Below are positions 30,150 to 38,842 of a stretch of DNA of 64,000 bases, piece by piece (position 1 is the stretch's first letter; every line of letters begins with the position of its first letter). Made by a program: the position numbers and the translations under genes. The stretch comes from Thermoplasmatota archaeon. GTDB lineage: Archaea > Thermoplasmatota > Penumbrarchaeia > Penumbrarchaeales > Penumbrarchaeaceae. The notes beneath the pieces are model-generated. The model was not told the origin of the DNA. It did no database searches and saw only the letters and a program-made list of their open reading frames with translations. Location of the stretch: contig JARVGK010000008.1 of NCBI GenBank assembly GCA_029762535.1, positions 42,529-106,528 on the forward strand, in the 5' to 3' direction.

Positions 30150-30554
30150 TTTCATCCCTCGATGCAGGTCCCCATCGACCCACTCTCTAACATAATGCCA
30201 CCACTATATAAATAATTTATTGCCTGGCTCTTCATTTTTACCGCGAAAGGAGGTTTTTTATGGAATATTTTAGAGTCGGAATATCGATGGGAAGTGGAGA
30301 GTAACATCACCTACACGAACACATATGGATAGTAGACAACCTTCCCAATATTCCCAGTCTCGTTCGCCTATTCCATGCTGATGTATCCAATAACATTTTA
30401 CCATAATTATAATTAATCAATCAAAGAAATGTGATGCCAATAGCTTCGTATCAAAAAAATTAGTAAATTGCATGGTCCAACCTGTTACTCTTGAGCGATA
30501 ACTCTTAGGTAAGTTATTTGAAATGAATCGGCGATACCAGGCAAGGTGAACGAC

Positions 30555-31781
30555 ATGAAAGCATTGATATTAGCGGCCGGTCAGGGTACCAGAATGGGGC
30601 CCCTGACCGAGAACAGGCCCAAACCCATGCTCCCGGTCGCAGGGAAGTGCTTCCTGGAGCACACCCTTGTCGCTTTGAGGGATTCGGGAGTTCGTGAGGT
30701 ATACATCTTGACAGGTTATCACGGTGCAACTATAAAGGACCATTTCGGGAACGGAACATCCCTTTCCCTAGATATCGAATATCTTGTGCAGCCAAAGAGA
30801 CTTGGAACGGCCCATGCCGTGAGCATGGCCAAGGATGTGATGAACGAGCCTTTCTTGTGCATAAACGCCGACGTGATAGTTTCGGAGGGGCTCGTCAAAG
30901 GTCTGATGGGCTCGTACGAGGACGGGGGATTCGACGCGATGACCCTTGTCAAAGTGGACGACTGCTCGCGTTTCGGTCTTGTCGAGTCCAAAGGGGGCTT
31001 CGTTGAACGGATAATCGAGAAACCCGGCAACAAGATGGAAGGTCTGATCAACGGTGGGATCTACCTTTTCAACGAACATATATTCGATGCGATCGAGAGA
31101 ACACCGCTATCTTCGAGAGGTGAGTATGAGCTCACCCGCTCCATCGAGATCCTGATGTGTTCCAACAAGGTCAGGGCGTTCATCCCGGAGGTAGAGTGGG
31201 TGGACATCGGATCGCCCTGGGACCTGCTGGATGCGAACGGGATCTATATGGCGATGATGGAACCCAGTGTATCCGGCATCGTCGAGGAAAATGTCCATAT
31301 ACGGGGCAGGCTCCATCTCGGGAAGGATGCTCTGGTCAGATCCGGCACCTATATCGAGGGAGACGTGTTCATCGATGAGGGAGCGATCATAGGGCCGAAC
31401 TCCTACATAAGAGGTAGCACCTATATCGGAAAAAGATGCAAGGTCGGTGCCGGTTCCGAGGTGAAGAACTCGATAATAATGGAGGGCACTAGCGTCCCGC
31501 ATCATAACTACGTCGGTGATTCTGTGATCGGGTCAGGGTGTAATCTCGGTTCAGGGACGAAGATAGCCAACCTCAGGTTCGATCACGCCAGCGTTAAGGT
31601 CATACTCAACGATTCACGCATCGACACGGGCAGAAAGAAGCTTGGGGCGATAATCGGTGACGGTGTCAACACCGGTATCAACTCCTCTTTGGGGCCCGGT
31701 ACGGTCATATGTGGAGGGGCGAGCATAGGACCAGGAAAATATGTTAAGGGGACCATAGGCAGGAATGCGCTCGTTTTGTGA
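30555..31781 (+). CDS. glmU: Bifunctional sugar-1-phosphate nucleotidylyltransferase/acetyltransferase (archaeal GlmU-like)
   Basis: ILAAGQGTRMGPLT..PKPMLP, IEKP, RGEYEL, hexapeptide repeats, HHNYVGDS. Confidence 0.9.
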   Translation: MKALILAAGQGTRMGPLTENRPKPMLPVAGKCFLEHTLVALRDSGVREVYILTGYHGATIKDHFGNGTSLSLDIEYLVQPKRLGTAHAVSMAKDVMNEPFLCINADVIVSEGLVKGLMGSYEDGGFDAMTLVKVDDCSRFGLVESKGGFVERIIEKPGNKMEGLINGGIYLFNEHIFDAIERTPLSSRGEYELTRSIEILMCSNKVRAFIPEVEWVDIGSPWDLLDANGIYMAMMEPSVSGIVEENVHIRGRLHLGKDALVRSGTYIEGDVFIDEGAIIGPNSYIRGSTYIGKRCKVGAGSEVKNSIIMEGTSVPHHNYVGDSVIGSGCNLGSGTKIANLRFDHASVKVILNDSRIDTGRKKLGAIIGDGVNTGINSSLGPGTVICGGASIGPGKYVKGTIGRNALVL

Positions 31782-31792
31782 CGGGTGATCGA

Positions 31793-32650
31793 ATGAGAGC
31801 AATACTCGCCTGCACGGGGGACCCCGCATCATTGAACATACGCGATTGCCTTCTTTCTCTGGGTTCCTGGGATAGGGCTGGAAAAATCTGGAATAATGAT
31901 TCATACATAAGTGGAGAGGACCTGCTGTGCCTCAAAGATGGGTCCCATCTGGATTTTGACCTCGTCGACAGCGAACTACTTGAGCAGTTAATGAGGGCCC
32001 TCGAACCGGAAAAATTCGAGGGCCGTAAACTCGGGATTGACAACTTGGTATTCCTGAGCAAACACAGGTCGGAGAAGGGGGTTGATTCTCTTACCGTCCA
32101 TGCGCCTGGAAACTATTCAGAGGCCAGATACGGAGGCAGGCCCCATACCCTGCCTCCAAGCTCCCCTAGGGAGATGAGCGCTGCTTTGAGGTGCTTGCGA
32201 TCATCTGTCCTGAACGCGGGATTGGACGAAAATGTGAGCTTCGAGGTCACACATCATGGCCCCTATCTTTCGACGCCCTCTTTCTTCATTGAGATCGGGT
32301 CCGTCGAGGATAGATGGGTATCAAGAGAGCTTGGAGAGGTGATCGCTAGTTCGTTGCTTCAAAATGGAGATCGAGGTTGGGAATTGCCCATAGCGATAGG
32401 CATAGGCGGAGGCCATTACTCCCCCAGGTTCTCGGAGGCCGCCCTGCGGTCGATCGCGAATATGGGCCATATGATACCGGACCATCATATGACCGGATCG
32501 ACCAGTGACAGGGAGTTAGCAGGAATGGCCGTTTTATCCACGCCCGGATGCGAAGCGTACATCCTGCATGAGACCTCCAGGAACAGGGATGTCCTAAAGG
32601 GGATCGAACCCTATTTGAGGGAGTTGGGCCTTTCAAAGATAACATGCTGA
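31793..32650 (+). CDS. dtdA: D-aminoacyl-tRNA deacylase (archaeal DTD2)
   Basis: DPASLNI, FLSKHRS, LTVHAPGN, EVTHHGP, FIEIGS and GGGHY. Confidence 0.93.
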   Translation: MRAILACTGDPASLNIRDCLLSLGSWDRAGKIWNNDSYISGEDLLCLKDGSHLDFDLVDSELLEQLMRALEPEKFEGRKLGIDNLVFLSKHRSEKGVDSLTVHAPGNYSEARYGGRPHTLPPSSPREMSAALRCLRSSVLNAGLDENVSFEVTHHGPYLSTPSFFIEIGSVEDRWVSRELGEVIASSLLQNGDRGWELPIAIGIGGGHYSPRFSEAALRSIANMGHMIPDHHMTGSTSDRELAGMAVLSTPGCEAYILHETSRNRDVLKGIEPYLRELGLSKITC

Positions 32651-32652
32651 GA

Positions 32653-34311
32653 TCAGGATGACCTGATCATGAACGGGCCCTTTAGCGCATGACCAAGCTT
32701 CCTGTAATAGTCCCTCACTCCGATCCCGGAGTTGACGGCGAGCCTATCGCACCCCCACTCATTGGTAGCGATCTCCCAGGCCTCTTCCAGAAGACGTATG
32801 CCAAATCCTCTATGCTGCCAAAGGTCCTCTGACCTGCTACCTATCGGAACCATCGGTCCGAAGACCTTCAACTCGCGCACGAGTGCGGTCTCCCCGGCAA
32901 GCTCCGGCCTGTGAGGGGATCCGGGTCTTCTCAGCCTGAGAAAGGCTATAAGAGCTTCCCTTCCCGTTGTTTCGATCGAAAGGAACACCTCCTTCCCTCC
33001 CGAAGCCTCGTACTCCGTTCTTGAGACCTCATCGGAGTGCTTGATATGGGCCTCGTCCAATTTATCGAACATGTGTCCTATCTCGCGGCACCTTATACAT
33101 CGGCATTTCGCATGCCTTTCGACGAGCCTGCTAGAGGCGATCTGTCTGAGATTGCTCTTCTTCACGCCAGCTTCGACAAGGGGTCCGGGAATATCCCGCT
33201 GGACCCTTTGGATTCGGACCCACTCCGGTACGCTCTCCTTTATTCGGGATACCACCTCAGATGCCTCCTCCGTTGTGTAAGGTTCGTAATCCCCCCGCTT
33301 CCACATATCGTACAGTTCGGTCCCCTTGATTACCAGAGTCGGATATATCTTCAGCATATCGGGGCGGAAGAGTTCGTTCTCGAACAAGGCCCTACCCGTT
33401 GCAACATCCATCCGTGGGGTCGAACCTGGCATCCCTGGCATGATATGATAGCACACCTTCATTGCGGAATCCTTCAGCCTTCTTGTAGCATCCACGCTGT
33501 CCTTTACCGTATGGCCTCTCCTCGAGGCTCTGAGAGCGGCATCGTGGGCGCTCTGGAATCCCAGTTCCACCCTGGTACCACCGAGTTCGAGCAGCAGGTC
33601 AATGTCCTTCTCATGGCAGCGGTCCGGCCTGGTCTCGAAGGTTATCCCAACACATCTGCTAGGAGCTGACTCGTTCATTCTTTGAGCTTCTTCTACATTC
33701 GTGGATATGTGACCGTTCATTGCGTCCAGGCATCCCTTGACGAACGATCGCTGATAGTCCGGGTCCCTGCTGGTGAAGGTCCCTCCCATTACTATGAGCT
33801 CGACCTTGTCCGTGGAGTGGCCTATATAGGACAGTTGCTCCAGCCTGTTCATCGTCTGAAGCAGGGGGTCGTAATCGTTCTGAGCGCCCCTCATCGCGGC
33901 TGGTTCCCTCCCTGTGTATGATTGTGGACTGGGAGATCCTCCATCCGGGCCTCCGGGGCAGAATATACATTTTCCATGCGGGCAACCCTCAGGAGAGGTC
34001 ATGGCAGCCACAACCGCGACCCCCGAGATCGTCCTGGATGGCTTCTTTAAAAGCAGGGACAGCGAGGACCGCCTCTGTTCCGGGAATTCCATCGATATCA
34101 GGTCGAGCAACATGGAGTTCCTGGGGATCTCCTTTAAGGCGTTCACCTTCACAACCTCAAGCTTTCTCCTCTGCAGTGCGTCCTGGTCCATTATCTCTCC
34201 TGATATTATCTCCTTGACGAGGTCCCGGACCGCCCTGAAAAGCACAGGATCGGACCTCCACATGTCCCTTTTCATCCCGTGATGCTCCTCTTTAAGTTGG
34301 GGTTCGCCCAT
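32653..34311 (-). CDS. elp3: Elp3 tRNA U34 acetyltransferase (radical SAM plus KAT); start may be 34275
   Basis: RTISGVAVVA, CPHGKCIFCPGG, QSYTG, ETRPD, RVQRDIP, CRCIRCRE and QHRGFG. Confidence 0.95.
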   Translation of the reverse strand: MGEPQLKEEHHGMKRDMWRSDPVLFRAVRDLVKEIISGEIMDQDALQRRKLEVVKVNALKEIPRNSMLLDLISMEFPEQRRSSLSLLLKKPSRTISGVAVVAAMTSPEGCPHGKCIFCPGGPDGGSPSPQSYTGREPAAMRGAQNDYDPLLQTMNRLEQLSYIGHSTDKVELIVMGGTFTSRDPDYQRSFVKGCLDAMNGHISTNVEEAQRMNESAPSRCVGITFETRPDRCHEKDIDLLLELGGTRVELGFQSAHDAALRASRRGHTVKDSVDATRRLKDSAMKVCYHIMPGMPGSTPRMDVATGRALFENELFRPDMLKIYPTLVIKGTELYDMWKRGDYEPYTTEEASEVVSRIKESVPEWVRIQRVQRDIPGPLVEAGVKKSNLRQIASSRLVERHAKCRCIRCREIGHMFDKLDEAHIKHSDEVSRTEYEASGGKEVFLSIETTGREALIAFLRLRRPGSPHRPELAGETALVRELKVFGPMVPIGSRSEDLWQHRGFGIRLLEEAWEIATNEWGCDRLAVNSGIGVRDYYRKLGHALKGPFMIRSS

Positions 34312-35728: not shown

Positions 35729-35738
35729 GCATAGGGAC

Positions 35739-36044
35739 GTGGCTCGTATGGATTACTTGATAATATCTCTGGCTAAGGACAAGGGAGCGGCTCTTGGAAA
35801 ACTCGTACAGGACGACCTTGTATCAAGGCAGACCCTCAATATAAGGGAGGCAAAAGGCCTGGGCATCGAAAAGGACGAGACATATATACTGATCGAGGGA
35901 TCTGACGAGGCGCTCAGGAAGGCAGTGGAACTTATTTCCGAAGAGGGTACCGTCCTTTCATCTCCGGAGAAGGAGAGGATCAGGGACCTTCTAAGAAAGG
36001 CCGATGAGGAGGTCGCCGAGGGATTGGGACTGATGTTCGGATGA
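35739..36044 (+). CDS. Small hypothetical protein with P-stalk-like C-terminus
   Basis: 10 nt downstream of glyA; alternating beta/alpha pattern; ends DEEVAEGLGLMFG. Confidence 0.8.
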   Translation: MARMDYLIISLAKDKGAALGKLVQDDLVSRQTLNIREAKGLGIEKDETYILIEGSDEALRKAVELISEEGTVLSSPEKERIRDLLRKADEEVAEGLGLMFG

Positions 36045-36081: not shown

Positions 36082-37350
36082 TCAATTCGAGCGGTTCAAT
36101 CTTCCCTCGCAGTAACTCATACCCTCGATGGCCGCTACGTTGTCAGGGTCGATCTGGACGACTTTGCTGTAGCATTCGAGTGCCGTCCCGTAATCGCCCA
36201 TCCTCTCCAGAATGACCGCGGTGTTGTGCCAGGCGGTCGGAGATCCCTCGTTAATCCTGATGGATTCGTCCAGGCAGTTCAGCGCATCCCTGAGCCTGCC
36301 CATCTTCGTCAATATGACGGCCTTGTTGTTCCATGCCTCTTCGTTATATGGGTCCTTATCAATGGCCCTATCGAGATGCTTTATGGAAGCATCGACATCG
36401 CCGATCCCTGACAGCGCGATCGAATAATTGATGTTCAGCTCGGGAGAATCGGGTTCTATGGCAAGGGCATCGCGGTAGCATTCCACTGATTCCGATAACC
36501 TGTCCATGTTGTATAGTATGACCCCTTTCTCGTTGAGCAGAGTGGTCGATCGTGGATCCTCTTCAAGGAGCTTCTGGACCATATCCATCGCGCCTATCAT
36601 GTCCCCGGCCTCCATAAGGGACCTCAGGTCCAATACCGTACCTTGGGACGCTTTTATCGTTACAGGTGGAGGTTCTAACTGAGCTTCCTCGGTCATCCGG
36701 GCAGTTTCCGGATTGACACCTTCTATGCCTTCTTCGATGTCCTCGATGACCTCATCCAGCTCCGGCAGGTCCTCAACCGAGAATTCATCTTCGGCCTCAT
36801 CCTTTGTAGTCTGATCCGCTTTCGGTCCTGTCAAATCACCGGTCGCATCCTGATCGCTCCGATCATGAGGTGGTACGGTGATCACTTCGTCCCCGCCCTC
36901 GAGGACGACGGTCGGGTTCCTCTCCATGAGAGCGATGGCGCCCGGTCCTTCTATGACATCCATATCAGAAGTTCTTCTCGAGGGAGACGTTTCGGATCCG
37001 GAGACATAGCTCTTGAACATGTCCTTCAGCTCGTTCTGGAGGCCTCCATGTTCCTTCTCCCAGTCCTCCTTATCCGTCCAGACCTGTCTTGCCTCTTCCC
37101 TTTTACGAAGGGTTTCCATCATATGCATATGTTCTTCCGGAGATATTCCGAGATGCTCCCGTATCTCCTCGAGCATCTGGGCGATCATCGGGTCCTTGCT
37201 TCCCGATTGGATATATTTCTTCATTAGCGATCCGTAGAACTCGAAATTGCTGCCCTCAGGCTCGACCTCTGTGGTCCTTTCTTCCCTTTTCTCTTTTTTG
37301 AAGAGTGCACTGATGCCCCTTCCCAGTGCTTTGTTGTTCTTTTCGGCCAT
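36082..37350 (-). CDS. TPR protein with ParB-like N-terminal peptide and acidic linker
   Basis: GGTGAGGAG RBS before ATG at 37350 (MAEKNNKALGRGISALF); about 5 C-terminal TPRs (AWNNKA, AWHNTA). Confidence 0.85.
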   Translation of the reverse strand: MAEKNNKALGRGISALFKKEKREERTTEVEPEGSNFEFYGSLMKKYIQSGSKDPMIAQMLEEIREHLGISPEEHMHMMETLRKREEARQVWTDKEDWEKEHGGLQNELKDMFKSYVSGSETSPSRRTSDMDVIEGPGAIALMERNPTVVLEGGDEVITVPPHDRSDQDATGDLTGPKADQTTKDEAEDEFSVEDLPELDEVIEDIEEGIEGVNPETARMTEEAQLEPPPVTIKASQGTVLDLRSLMEAGDMIGAMDMVQKLLEEDPRSTTLLNEKGVILYNMDRLSESVECYRDALAIEPDSPELNINYSIALSGIGDVDASIKHLDRAIDKDPYNEEAWNNKAVILTKMGRLRDALNCLDESIRINEGSPTAWHNTAVILERMGDYGTALECYSKVVQIDPDNVAAIEGMSYCEGRLNRSN

Positions 37351-37579
37351 CTCCTCACCGGTCGACTCCCTGAAATCCGTTGGCTCAACCGTATATACAT
37401 TAATAATGATTTTGATTGCGGTCAGCCTTTTCATGGATCGGATCGACCCTCTACCCGAATTATCGACACTTTCGGCCATCCCCCGGCTAGACAGTTTATT
37501 AAAACCGTTATCACAATAGGCCCATGGAGGGATCTCCACGACAGGCGAAGACAAGAAAGCGCCAGAAGACGAAACAGAT

Positions 37580-38842
37580 GTGGCGCATACGGAAAATGAT
37601 GAATTGGACGAGGAAATGTTGAGAGAGAGCGCTTTTAGGATGTCAAAGGAATTGGGAATATCCCTGGACGAGGCCGAAAGGGCGGTCATGGCCCGCTCAG
37701 GTATCAGGCCGCAAAATAATGTCCGAAGCATTGGCTCGATCTCAGAGCTAACACCCGATCTCAGGGGTATCGCGCTGAAGGTCAGAGTGATATCCGTGAG
37801 CGAGGGGGTCCGAAGCGAGGGTAAAGGGATCTATCATTACGGATCACTGGGTGATTCCACAGGCGACATACCCTTCATCTCATGGAAGGATTTCCCCTTC
37901 CAACCGGGAGATGGCGTTCTAATCAGTAATTGCTCGACCAGGCAATACGCCGGAAGGGTAGAGGTCGTGATCGGTGAGACCACGGATCTTAACAGTATCG
38001 ACGATACGACGGGACTAATGCCCCCTGTTGACGATGTCGTCCCGATGAGGATCTCAGAGCTCACCGATGGATTGAGGAACGTCGATGTACTTGGCAGGGC
38101 CGATGAACTCCACGAGGTCAGTGTAAATGTGAAAGGTAACCCGAGGATGATAGTCAACGGGATCCTCCTTGATGGAAGCGGACGTATCGGCTTTACATGC
38201 TGGGGCCCCATTGAAATGACCCAAGGCGGATGTTACAGGATAGTTGGAGGCAACATACGAACCTATCGCGGAAGCCTGAAGCTGAACTTCGATCCTGGAG
38301 CGATAGTCAAACGACTTCCGGACGATGTTATACCCCCTATGGAGGAACTGACAAGACCGGTCCCTTTCAGGGTCCATCTGATCGATGAGGGCTTCATACC
38401 CGGACCGGTGATCCTTCGTGGGATCGTTATCGATGTAAGACCAGGGTCCGGACTCGTCAGGAAATGCGTAGAATGCGGCCGCAGGTTGCACAAGGGTCAG
38501 TGCTCCGTCCACGGAACGGTCGAGGGCGAGGACGATCTCCGTCTAAGGGCCGTCCTGGATGATGGTTCTGGCACGATCATGGCAAGGGCTGGAAGGGATA
38601 TCGTCGAATCGATCATGGGCCGCTCCATGTCATCCATACTGGAAGAGGCCAGGAATAACATGTCCTCCGATCTCGTAATTGAGGAGCTAAGAGAGATCCT
38701 CGTGGGTCACTGCTGGACCATCTCCGGCGATCCCGGGTCGGACGACTATGGACCCAGTCTGTACATATCCAGCATAAAGCCCGGCCTGGACGGCTCGCTC
38801 CTTACCGATGAGATAATGGCCATGGCGGAGGTGCTGCTATGA
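37580..38842 (+). CDS. Replication protein A, large subunit (OB folds plus Zn finger); start uncertain
   Basis: Repeated ISEL...LGDSTG / LLDGSG / LDDGSG OB folds; CVEC-x8-CSVH zinc finger. Confidence 0.9.
   Translation: MAHTENDELDEEMLRESAFRMSKELGISLDEAERAVMARSGIRPQNNVRSIGSISELTPDLRGIALKVRVISVSEGVRSEGKGIYHYGSLGDSTGDIPFISWKDFPFQPGDGVLISNCSTRQYAGRVEVVIGETTDLNSIDDTTGLMPPVDDVVPMRISELTDGLRNVDVLGRADELHEVSVNVKGNPRMIVNGILLDGSGRIGFTCWGPIEMTQGGCYRIVGGNIRTYRGSLKLNFDPGAIVKRLPDDVIPPMEELTRPVPFRVHLIDEGFIPGPVILRGIVIDVRPGSGLVRKCVECGRRLHKGQCSVHGTVEGEDDLRLRAVLDDGSGTIMARAGRDIVESIMGRSMSSILEEARNNMSSDLVIEELREILVGHCWTISGDPGSDDYGPSLYISSIKPGLDGSLLTDEIMAMAEVLL

Follow-up and report, generated by a model that had tools for sequence, protein, structure and literature searches.

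An unnamed archaeal protein family carries a C-terminal tail like that of the ribosomal stalk protein aP1 and may act as an adaptor for translation factors

Results

The unnamed-family gene and its surroundings

The window, the whole 64,000-nucleotide stretch of archaeal DNA that we analyzed, contains on its + strand, at 35748..36044 with the stop codon included, a gene of an unnamed family, which is present in one copy in the host genome and encodes a protein of 98 aa (10.8 kDa, pI 4.6). A sequence-only reading of the window had taken the gene to be the open reading frame at 35739-36044. That frame is present on the + strand and would give 101 aa from a GTG, with the stop included in its coordinates, but the true start is likely the ATG at 35748, because close homologues begin there, giving the 98 aa, and because a putative Shine-Dalgarno-like AGGGA (35733..35737, +) stands 10 nt before this ATG and only 1 nt before the GTG at 35739, a spacing too short for initiation at the latter.

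As the same reading had noted, the gene sits behind glyA (serine hydroxymethyltransferase, PF00464; 34313..35728, +), on the same strand and at a spacing of 19 nt. We regard glyA as an upstream neighbor by local synteny that lies outside the system; judged from homologues, its true start is probably ~120 nt downstream of 34313. Farther upstream, positions 30546-34311 of the window hold a GlmU-like nucleotidyltransferase and a D-aminoacyl-tRNA deacylase on the + strand; Elp3 is encoded on the − strand and diverges from glyA. The gene downstream (36082-37731, −) is convergent and encodes a TPR protein that carries LGRG as an N-terminal motif; it remains adjacent in the host's family. A scan for bacterial-type promoters and terminators found none, and the codon adaptation of the unnamed-family gene (0.54, vs 0.44-0.57 for in-frame neighbors) is uninformative. 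The RNA runs of two studies contain one family homologue, and two give contigs spanning just the gene; these runs had been picked by the homologue gene itself and the contigs give no expression level, so they were not counted.

Extent of the family

Homologue searches gathered about 200 proteins, nearly all of 92-106 aa, from Thermoplasmatota, Halobacteriota, Aenigmatarchaeota and Micrarchaeota. The gene is carried by 135/301 genomes of Thermoplasmatota, where most families have it in all or nearly all genomes (40/42 and 12/12) or in none (0/50, 0/40 and 0/24), and by 30 of the 201 genomes of the phylum taken as Halobacteriota. Sequence searches of Pfam, NCBIfam and the PDB with the family protein gave zero matches, and no named Atlas cluster matched, the family's own Atlas clusters being unnamed and archaeal. 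Rows for succinate dehydrogenase that appeared in the sequence searches were at chance level and were discarded. No family member was found among viral contigs, phages or BFVD. Two partial duplications were seen in passing: a degraded partial second copy in G190, 1.6 kb downstream of the family gene (L067:6630-6749), and a duplicated 3′ end of the gene beside ambiguous bases in G079 (L369).

The neighbors of the gene differ by lineage, and across the surveyed loci no translation gene was a conserved neighbor. Many Aenigmatarchaeota, for example, have the family gene directly upstream of a tRNA-Gly (L129-L159), which at loci L153 and L156 abuts the stop codon of the family gene.

A ferredoxin-like body followed by a long helix

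The AlphaFold2 model of the family protein (mean pLDDT 91, pTM 0.80) has a ferredoxin-like body of four strands and two main helices (residues 1-73; 35748..35966, +), followed by a long C-terminal helix (residues 74-97; 35967..36038, +), the first half of which is amphipathic (I78, L82, A85, V89). The helix continues without interruption after the domain, in agreement with the beta/alpha pattern lacking a hinge that had been read from the letters. Confidence falls to a pLDDT of 71 over residues 91-98, vs 89-96 elsewhere. Since L93, M96 and F97 share a helix face with the body-packing residues I78, L82 and V89, they could be packed.

The most conserved columns of the family are G92, G94 and F97 in the helix end and D23, R27 and G51 in the body. 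Among 186 family proteins, D23 is kept in 170, R27 in 179, Q28 in 159, R33 in 158 and G51 in 181. The conserved motif D22-D23-x-x-S26-R27-Q28 (35811..35831, +) may have a binding role and, together with R33 and E50-G51, is a candidate second binding surface, a polar patch belonging to the body itself.

No significant fold match to the model was obtained (no Z ≥ 8, no E < 0.001), and the matches were at background level: the best structural Z was 7.2, the xRRM 4erd reached Z 6.3 (rmsd 2.9, 85 aligned), and the top Foldseek rows were PII signaling proteins (E 0.005, TM about 0.47), not significant and limited to the ferredoxin core. The xRRM domains (p65, Larp7, La) share with the family protein a ferredoxin-like core and a long C-terminal helix, and PII proteins share the core; the scores are at background level, the family protein is acidic, and the likeness is probably one of common fold only. 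aEF1B is a ferredoxin-like protein of about 90 aa that acts on a translational GTPase. Its domain (EF1_GNE, PF00736) resembles the family protein in size (~90 aa) and fold but has no stalk-like tail, and the host has its own aEF1B; homology to aEF1B or replacement of it was rejected, as PF00736 was unmatched and the profile probability was 0.1%. Two members, P0141 (L056:343-927) and P0183, are 194-aa tandem duplicates with a tail on the last copy only; a single-sequence fold of P0141 was unusable (pLDDT 43).

The C-terminal tail resembles the end of aP1

The protein ends in a stalk-like tail at 36003..36044 (+), as had been described for this C-terminus, in which G92, L93, M96, F97 and G98 correspond to G102, L103, L106, F107 and G108 of aP1. 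Against an aP1-tail profile built on 28 sequences from other Thermoplasmatota, the tail obtained 22.5 bits and ranked third of the 12,838 ORFs of the genome, behind only aP0 and aP1 (45.8 bits each); the fourth-ranked ORF ending scored 4.0 bits, and the mean of all ORFs was −36 (sd 7.4). On the same profile, 89% of the 186 family members outscore the fourth-ranked ORF of the host genome. Judged from these scores, the likeness of the tail to the aP1 ending is more than chance. The terminal motif, on whose conservation the sequence-only reading had staked its proposal, ranks with the best-conserved parts of the 186 homologues, down to ~21% identity, with G92, G94 and F97 each present in 179-181 of them.

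With the C-terminal peptide of aP1/aP0 (TIGR03685) the family protein shares a helical ending in which an acidic run is followed by G, a hydrophobic residue, two residues, a second hydrophobic residue, F and G. It differs from these proteins in having neither the helical dimerization domain nor the Ala-rich hinge and in lying outside the L1-L10-P1 operon; the whole protein leaves TIGR03685 and PF00428 unmatched and has a beta/alpha body in the model, which bears out the earlier statement that it is not P1 or P0. The true aP1 and aP0 of the host are on contig C8, behind L1, and the genome also encodes aEF1B, an ABCE1-sized ORF with an RLI domain, aEF1A and aEF2. In passing, we observed that the ribosomal protein S7-like gene of the host (L024:694-1809; 371 aa in total) encodes a lengthy acidic stretch of repetitive sequence as an N-terminal extension.

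In P. horikoshii aP1, L103, L106 and F107 are needed to bind aEF1A, aEF2 and ABCE1, G102 is needed for aEF2, L100 contributes moderately to aEF1A binding, and G108, which forms a salt bridge to aEF1A, is dispensable for the activation of ABCE1 (PMC4267659, PMC5887453, PMC6125642). At the equivalents of G102, L103, L106 and F107 the family keeps, at the level of residue class, G/hydrophobic/hydrophobic/F. The peptides also differ: the two hydrophobic positions vary in the family (M/L/F/V and I/M/L), whereas L, L and F are invariant in aP1 (29/29, Thermoplasmatota); the S104 equivalent (G94) is almost always Gly in the family, while Ser or Ala is accepted in aP1; a bulky residue often precedes the L106 equivalent; and family tails often extend beyond the last Gly. 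The hydrophobic L100 equivalent is absent, with Ala in 122 of the 186 family proteins, and aP1 itself has Ala at this position in 13/29 Thermoplasmatota. Given the retained G102 equivalent, the Ala at the L100 equivalent and the frequent extension past the Gly, we infer that aEF2, ABCE1 or aIF5B would suit the tail better than the aEF1A-GDP mode of binding. The variation at the hydrophobic positions, the fixed Gly and the extensions would in the same way fit one or a few partners of the groove type. Co-folding with domains G+II of the host aEF2 (alignments A4 and A2), the sole partner tried, gave a score of 0.02 vs a mark of 0.32, which we counted neither for nor against factor binding.

The ends of aP1 and of the family protein tend to vary together

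We then compared the last residues of aP1 and of the family protein in the 138 genomes with both, one pair having been excluded for ambiguous bases, and called an aP1 end unusual when it departs from F-G-stop, in its last residue or by extension. The family end is unusual in 22/22 genomes with an unusual aP1 end vs 20 of the 116 others. The 22 genomes fall into five lineages on the aP0 tree, and in three of these the two ends match in kind: F-D, F-G plus two residues, and F-G-G. Thus, in family f19 of Thermoplasmatota both proteins end in F-D, in a Halobacteriota clade (L292, L295, L297, L302) both gain two residues, of which the final one is hydrophobic, the aP1 extension following the usual last Gly, and in two Micrarchaeota each gains one residue. 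The aP0 end of the Halobacteriota clade is ordinary, which argues against a genome-wide bias. After correction for the tree (built from the aP0 core by a quick LG+G4 search, excluding rows without a complete aP0), 2.7 pairs go the same way and 0.0 the opposite way (median p 0.25, not significant), and the sign test cannot reach 0.05 because only four well-supported independent pairs are available. The tail pattern used to gather the DPANN members required Gly after the Phe but placed no constraint on the extension.

A comparison of the aEF1A contact residues in 30 genomes revealed no signature among the lineages whose ends have changed. In P. horikoshii, binding of aP1 reportedly requires Lys324 of aEF1A; the position is Leu in the host (L024:4116-5393) and Thr in most of the 30 genomes, so this contact is not general.

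Carriers tend to be commoner where aP0 has lost its tail

In Thermoplasmatota the aP0 tail is absent from 28/47 carriers of the family gene vs 3/36 non-carriers. The Halobacteriota set, an out-of-sample test looked at after the hypothesis had been recorded, gave 20/30 carriers vs 8/27 non-carriers, and among Aenigmatarchaeota and Micrarchaeota-type genomes, where carriers only were sampled, the tail is absent in 54/54 carriers with a readable aP0. Corrected for the tree, the association comes down to 4 well-supported independent pairs, 1.6 in the same direction and 0.2 in the opposite one (p 1). The window's own genome has the family protein and a tailed aP0 together, and eleven non-carriers have a tail-less aP0, so the family protein is no obligatory replacement for the aP0 tail.

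The aP0 tail has itself been lost repeatedly in archaea: the tree used for the aP0 association shows 17 or more changes. The losses include whole families of Thermoplasmatota and all DPANN genomes read (L069-L097, L192-L344, L416-L453), and some aP0 proteins stop just short of the motif (L084, L093, L248).

Discussion

The peptide at the end of this protein is a known device, and its carrier is a family undescribed in the literature searched, in which subscription journals were thinly covered. We place about four fifths of the weight on the tail having a partner in common with aP1. Among the readings considered we prefer, tentatively and at somewhat less than an even chance, that of a two-ended adaptor. 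In this view the last 7-11 residues would form a helix that fits into the hydrophobic groove with which a translation factor binds the stalk, and the body would bind a second target, which might be a site on the ribosome, a different protein or a further surface of the same factor. Such a protein would serve as an additional arm, separate from the stalk, for delivering or holding a factor; it would be dispensable where it has been lost and would be retained more often in lineages with a tail-less aP0. The sequence-only reading had proposed an off-ribosome stalk mimic that sequesters or recruits translational GTPases. The idea of a mimic is supported by the conserved tail on a body that is not P1 or P0 and by ends that vary with those of aP1 in five lineages; recruitment suits the evidence better than sequestration, and the identity of the factor and the exposure of the tail are presumed in either case.

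Sequestration is an unlikely alternative, although it comes closest among the rivals. Here the free protein would act as a decoy or buffer, its tail keeping a factor off the stalk, for example in stationary phase, with the body as scaffold or sensor. The conservation of the tail, its rank in the genome and the co-variation of the ends would be the same for a decoy, and whole families without the gene (the 0/50, 0/40 and 0/24 above) are expected of an accessory regulator. A gene that stands alone amid changing neighborhoods is likewise consistent with a decoy, as are the PII signaling proteins in the top Foldseek rows, but that match is not significant and is limited to the shared ferredoxin core. 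Moreover, a decoy would have to compete, with one tail per chain, against the seven tails by which each ribosome raises the local concentration of factors (PMC7768734), and the trend toward more carriers where the aP0 tail is lost runs counter to the prediction for an inhibitor. The archaeal hibernation factors HibA/AHA and MRDF (PMC13324472, PMC12605026) are also accessory translation regulators of patchy distribution; they differ in being built from unrelated domains (HPF and CBS; PurH, with aEF2), and in the accessible portions of these sources a stalk-like tail is not reported.

Slightly less probable still is structural convergence, by which the tail would be a glycine-rich packing helix, with A90, G94 and G98 on one face, closing over the sheet of the same protein or over an adjacent subunit, its likeness to aP1 incidental. 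The register of the hydrophobic tail residues with the body-packing face agrees with this, as does a G94 that is nearly invariant where aP1 accepts Ser or Ala, and the tandem duplicates suggest that domains pair with one another. The first copy of those duplicates nevertheless manages without a tail, the model is least confident in the tail, and convergence would leave unexplained both the acidic run before the motif and the co-variation with aP1 in five lineages.

We also considered, as an improbable reading, that the shared partner is another reader of the aP1 C-terminus, such as a protease or chaperone, or a toxin aimed at the stalk and against which the family protein is a shield. This would account equally well for the co-varying ends, and the absence of a signature in the aEF1A contact residues is compatible with it; in eukaryotes, ribosome-inactivating proteins bind the stalk tails. 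On the other hand, the literature searched revealed no archaeal partner of such a kind, and phage or viral members of the family were not found.

Finally, a coupling of translation to one-carbon status together with glyA, also part of the sequence-only reading, is very improbable and largely ruled out by the neighborhood survey: the two genes adjoin on the same strand, 19 nt apart, in 13/13 loci of the host's family, but a glyA-like ORF is nearby in only 1/113 loci elsewhere and the neighbors in other lineages are unrelated, so the adjacency is confined almost wholly to that family and reflects local synteny.

Carried further, the adaptor reading would make the protein an unrecognized archaeal translation factor, which we think unlikely though worth stating: a detachable extra stalk arm whose body binds the ribosome or a dedicated cargo while its tail recruits a GTPase or ABCE1, in a job shared with the aP0 tail so that either can be lost. 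The stalk tail is usually regarded as solely a ribosomal docking device. If the proposed adaptor is real, control of access to translational GTPases or ABCE1 would extend beyond the stalk in four or more archaeal phyla.
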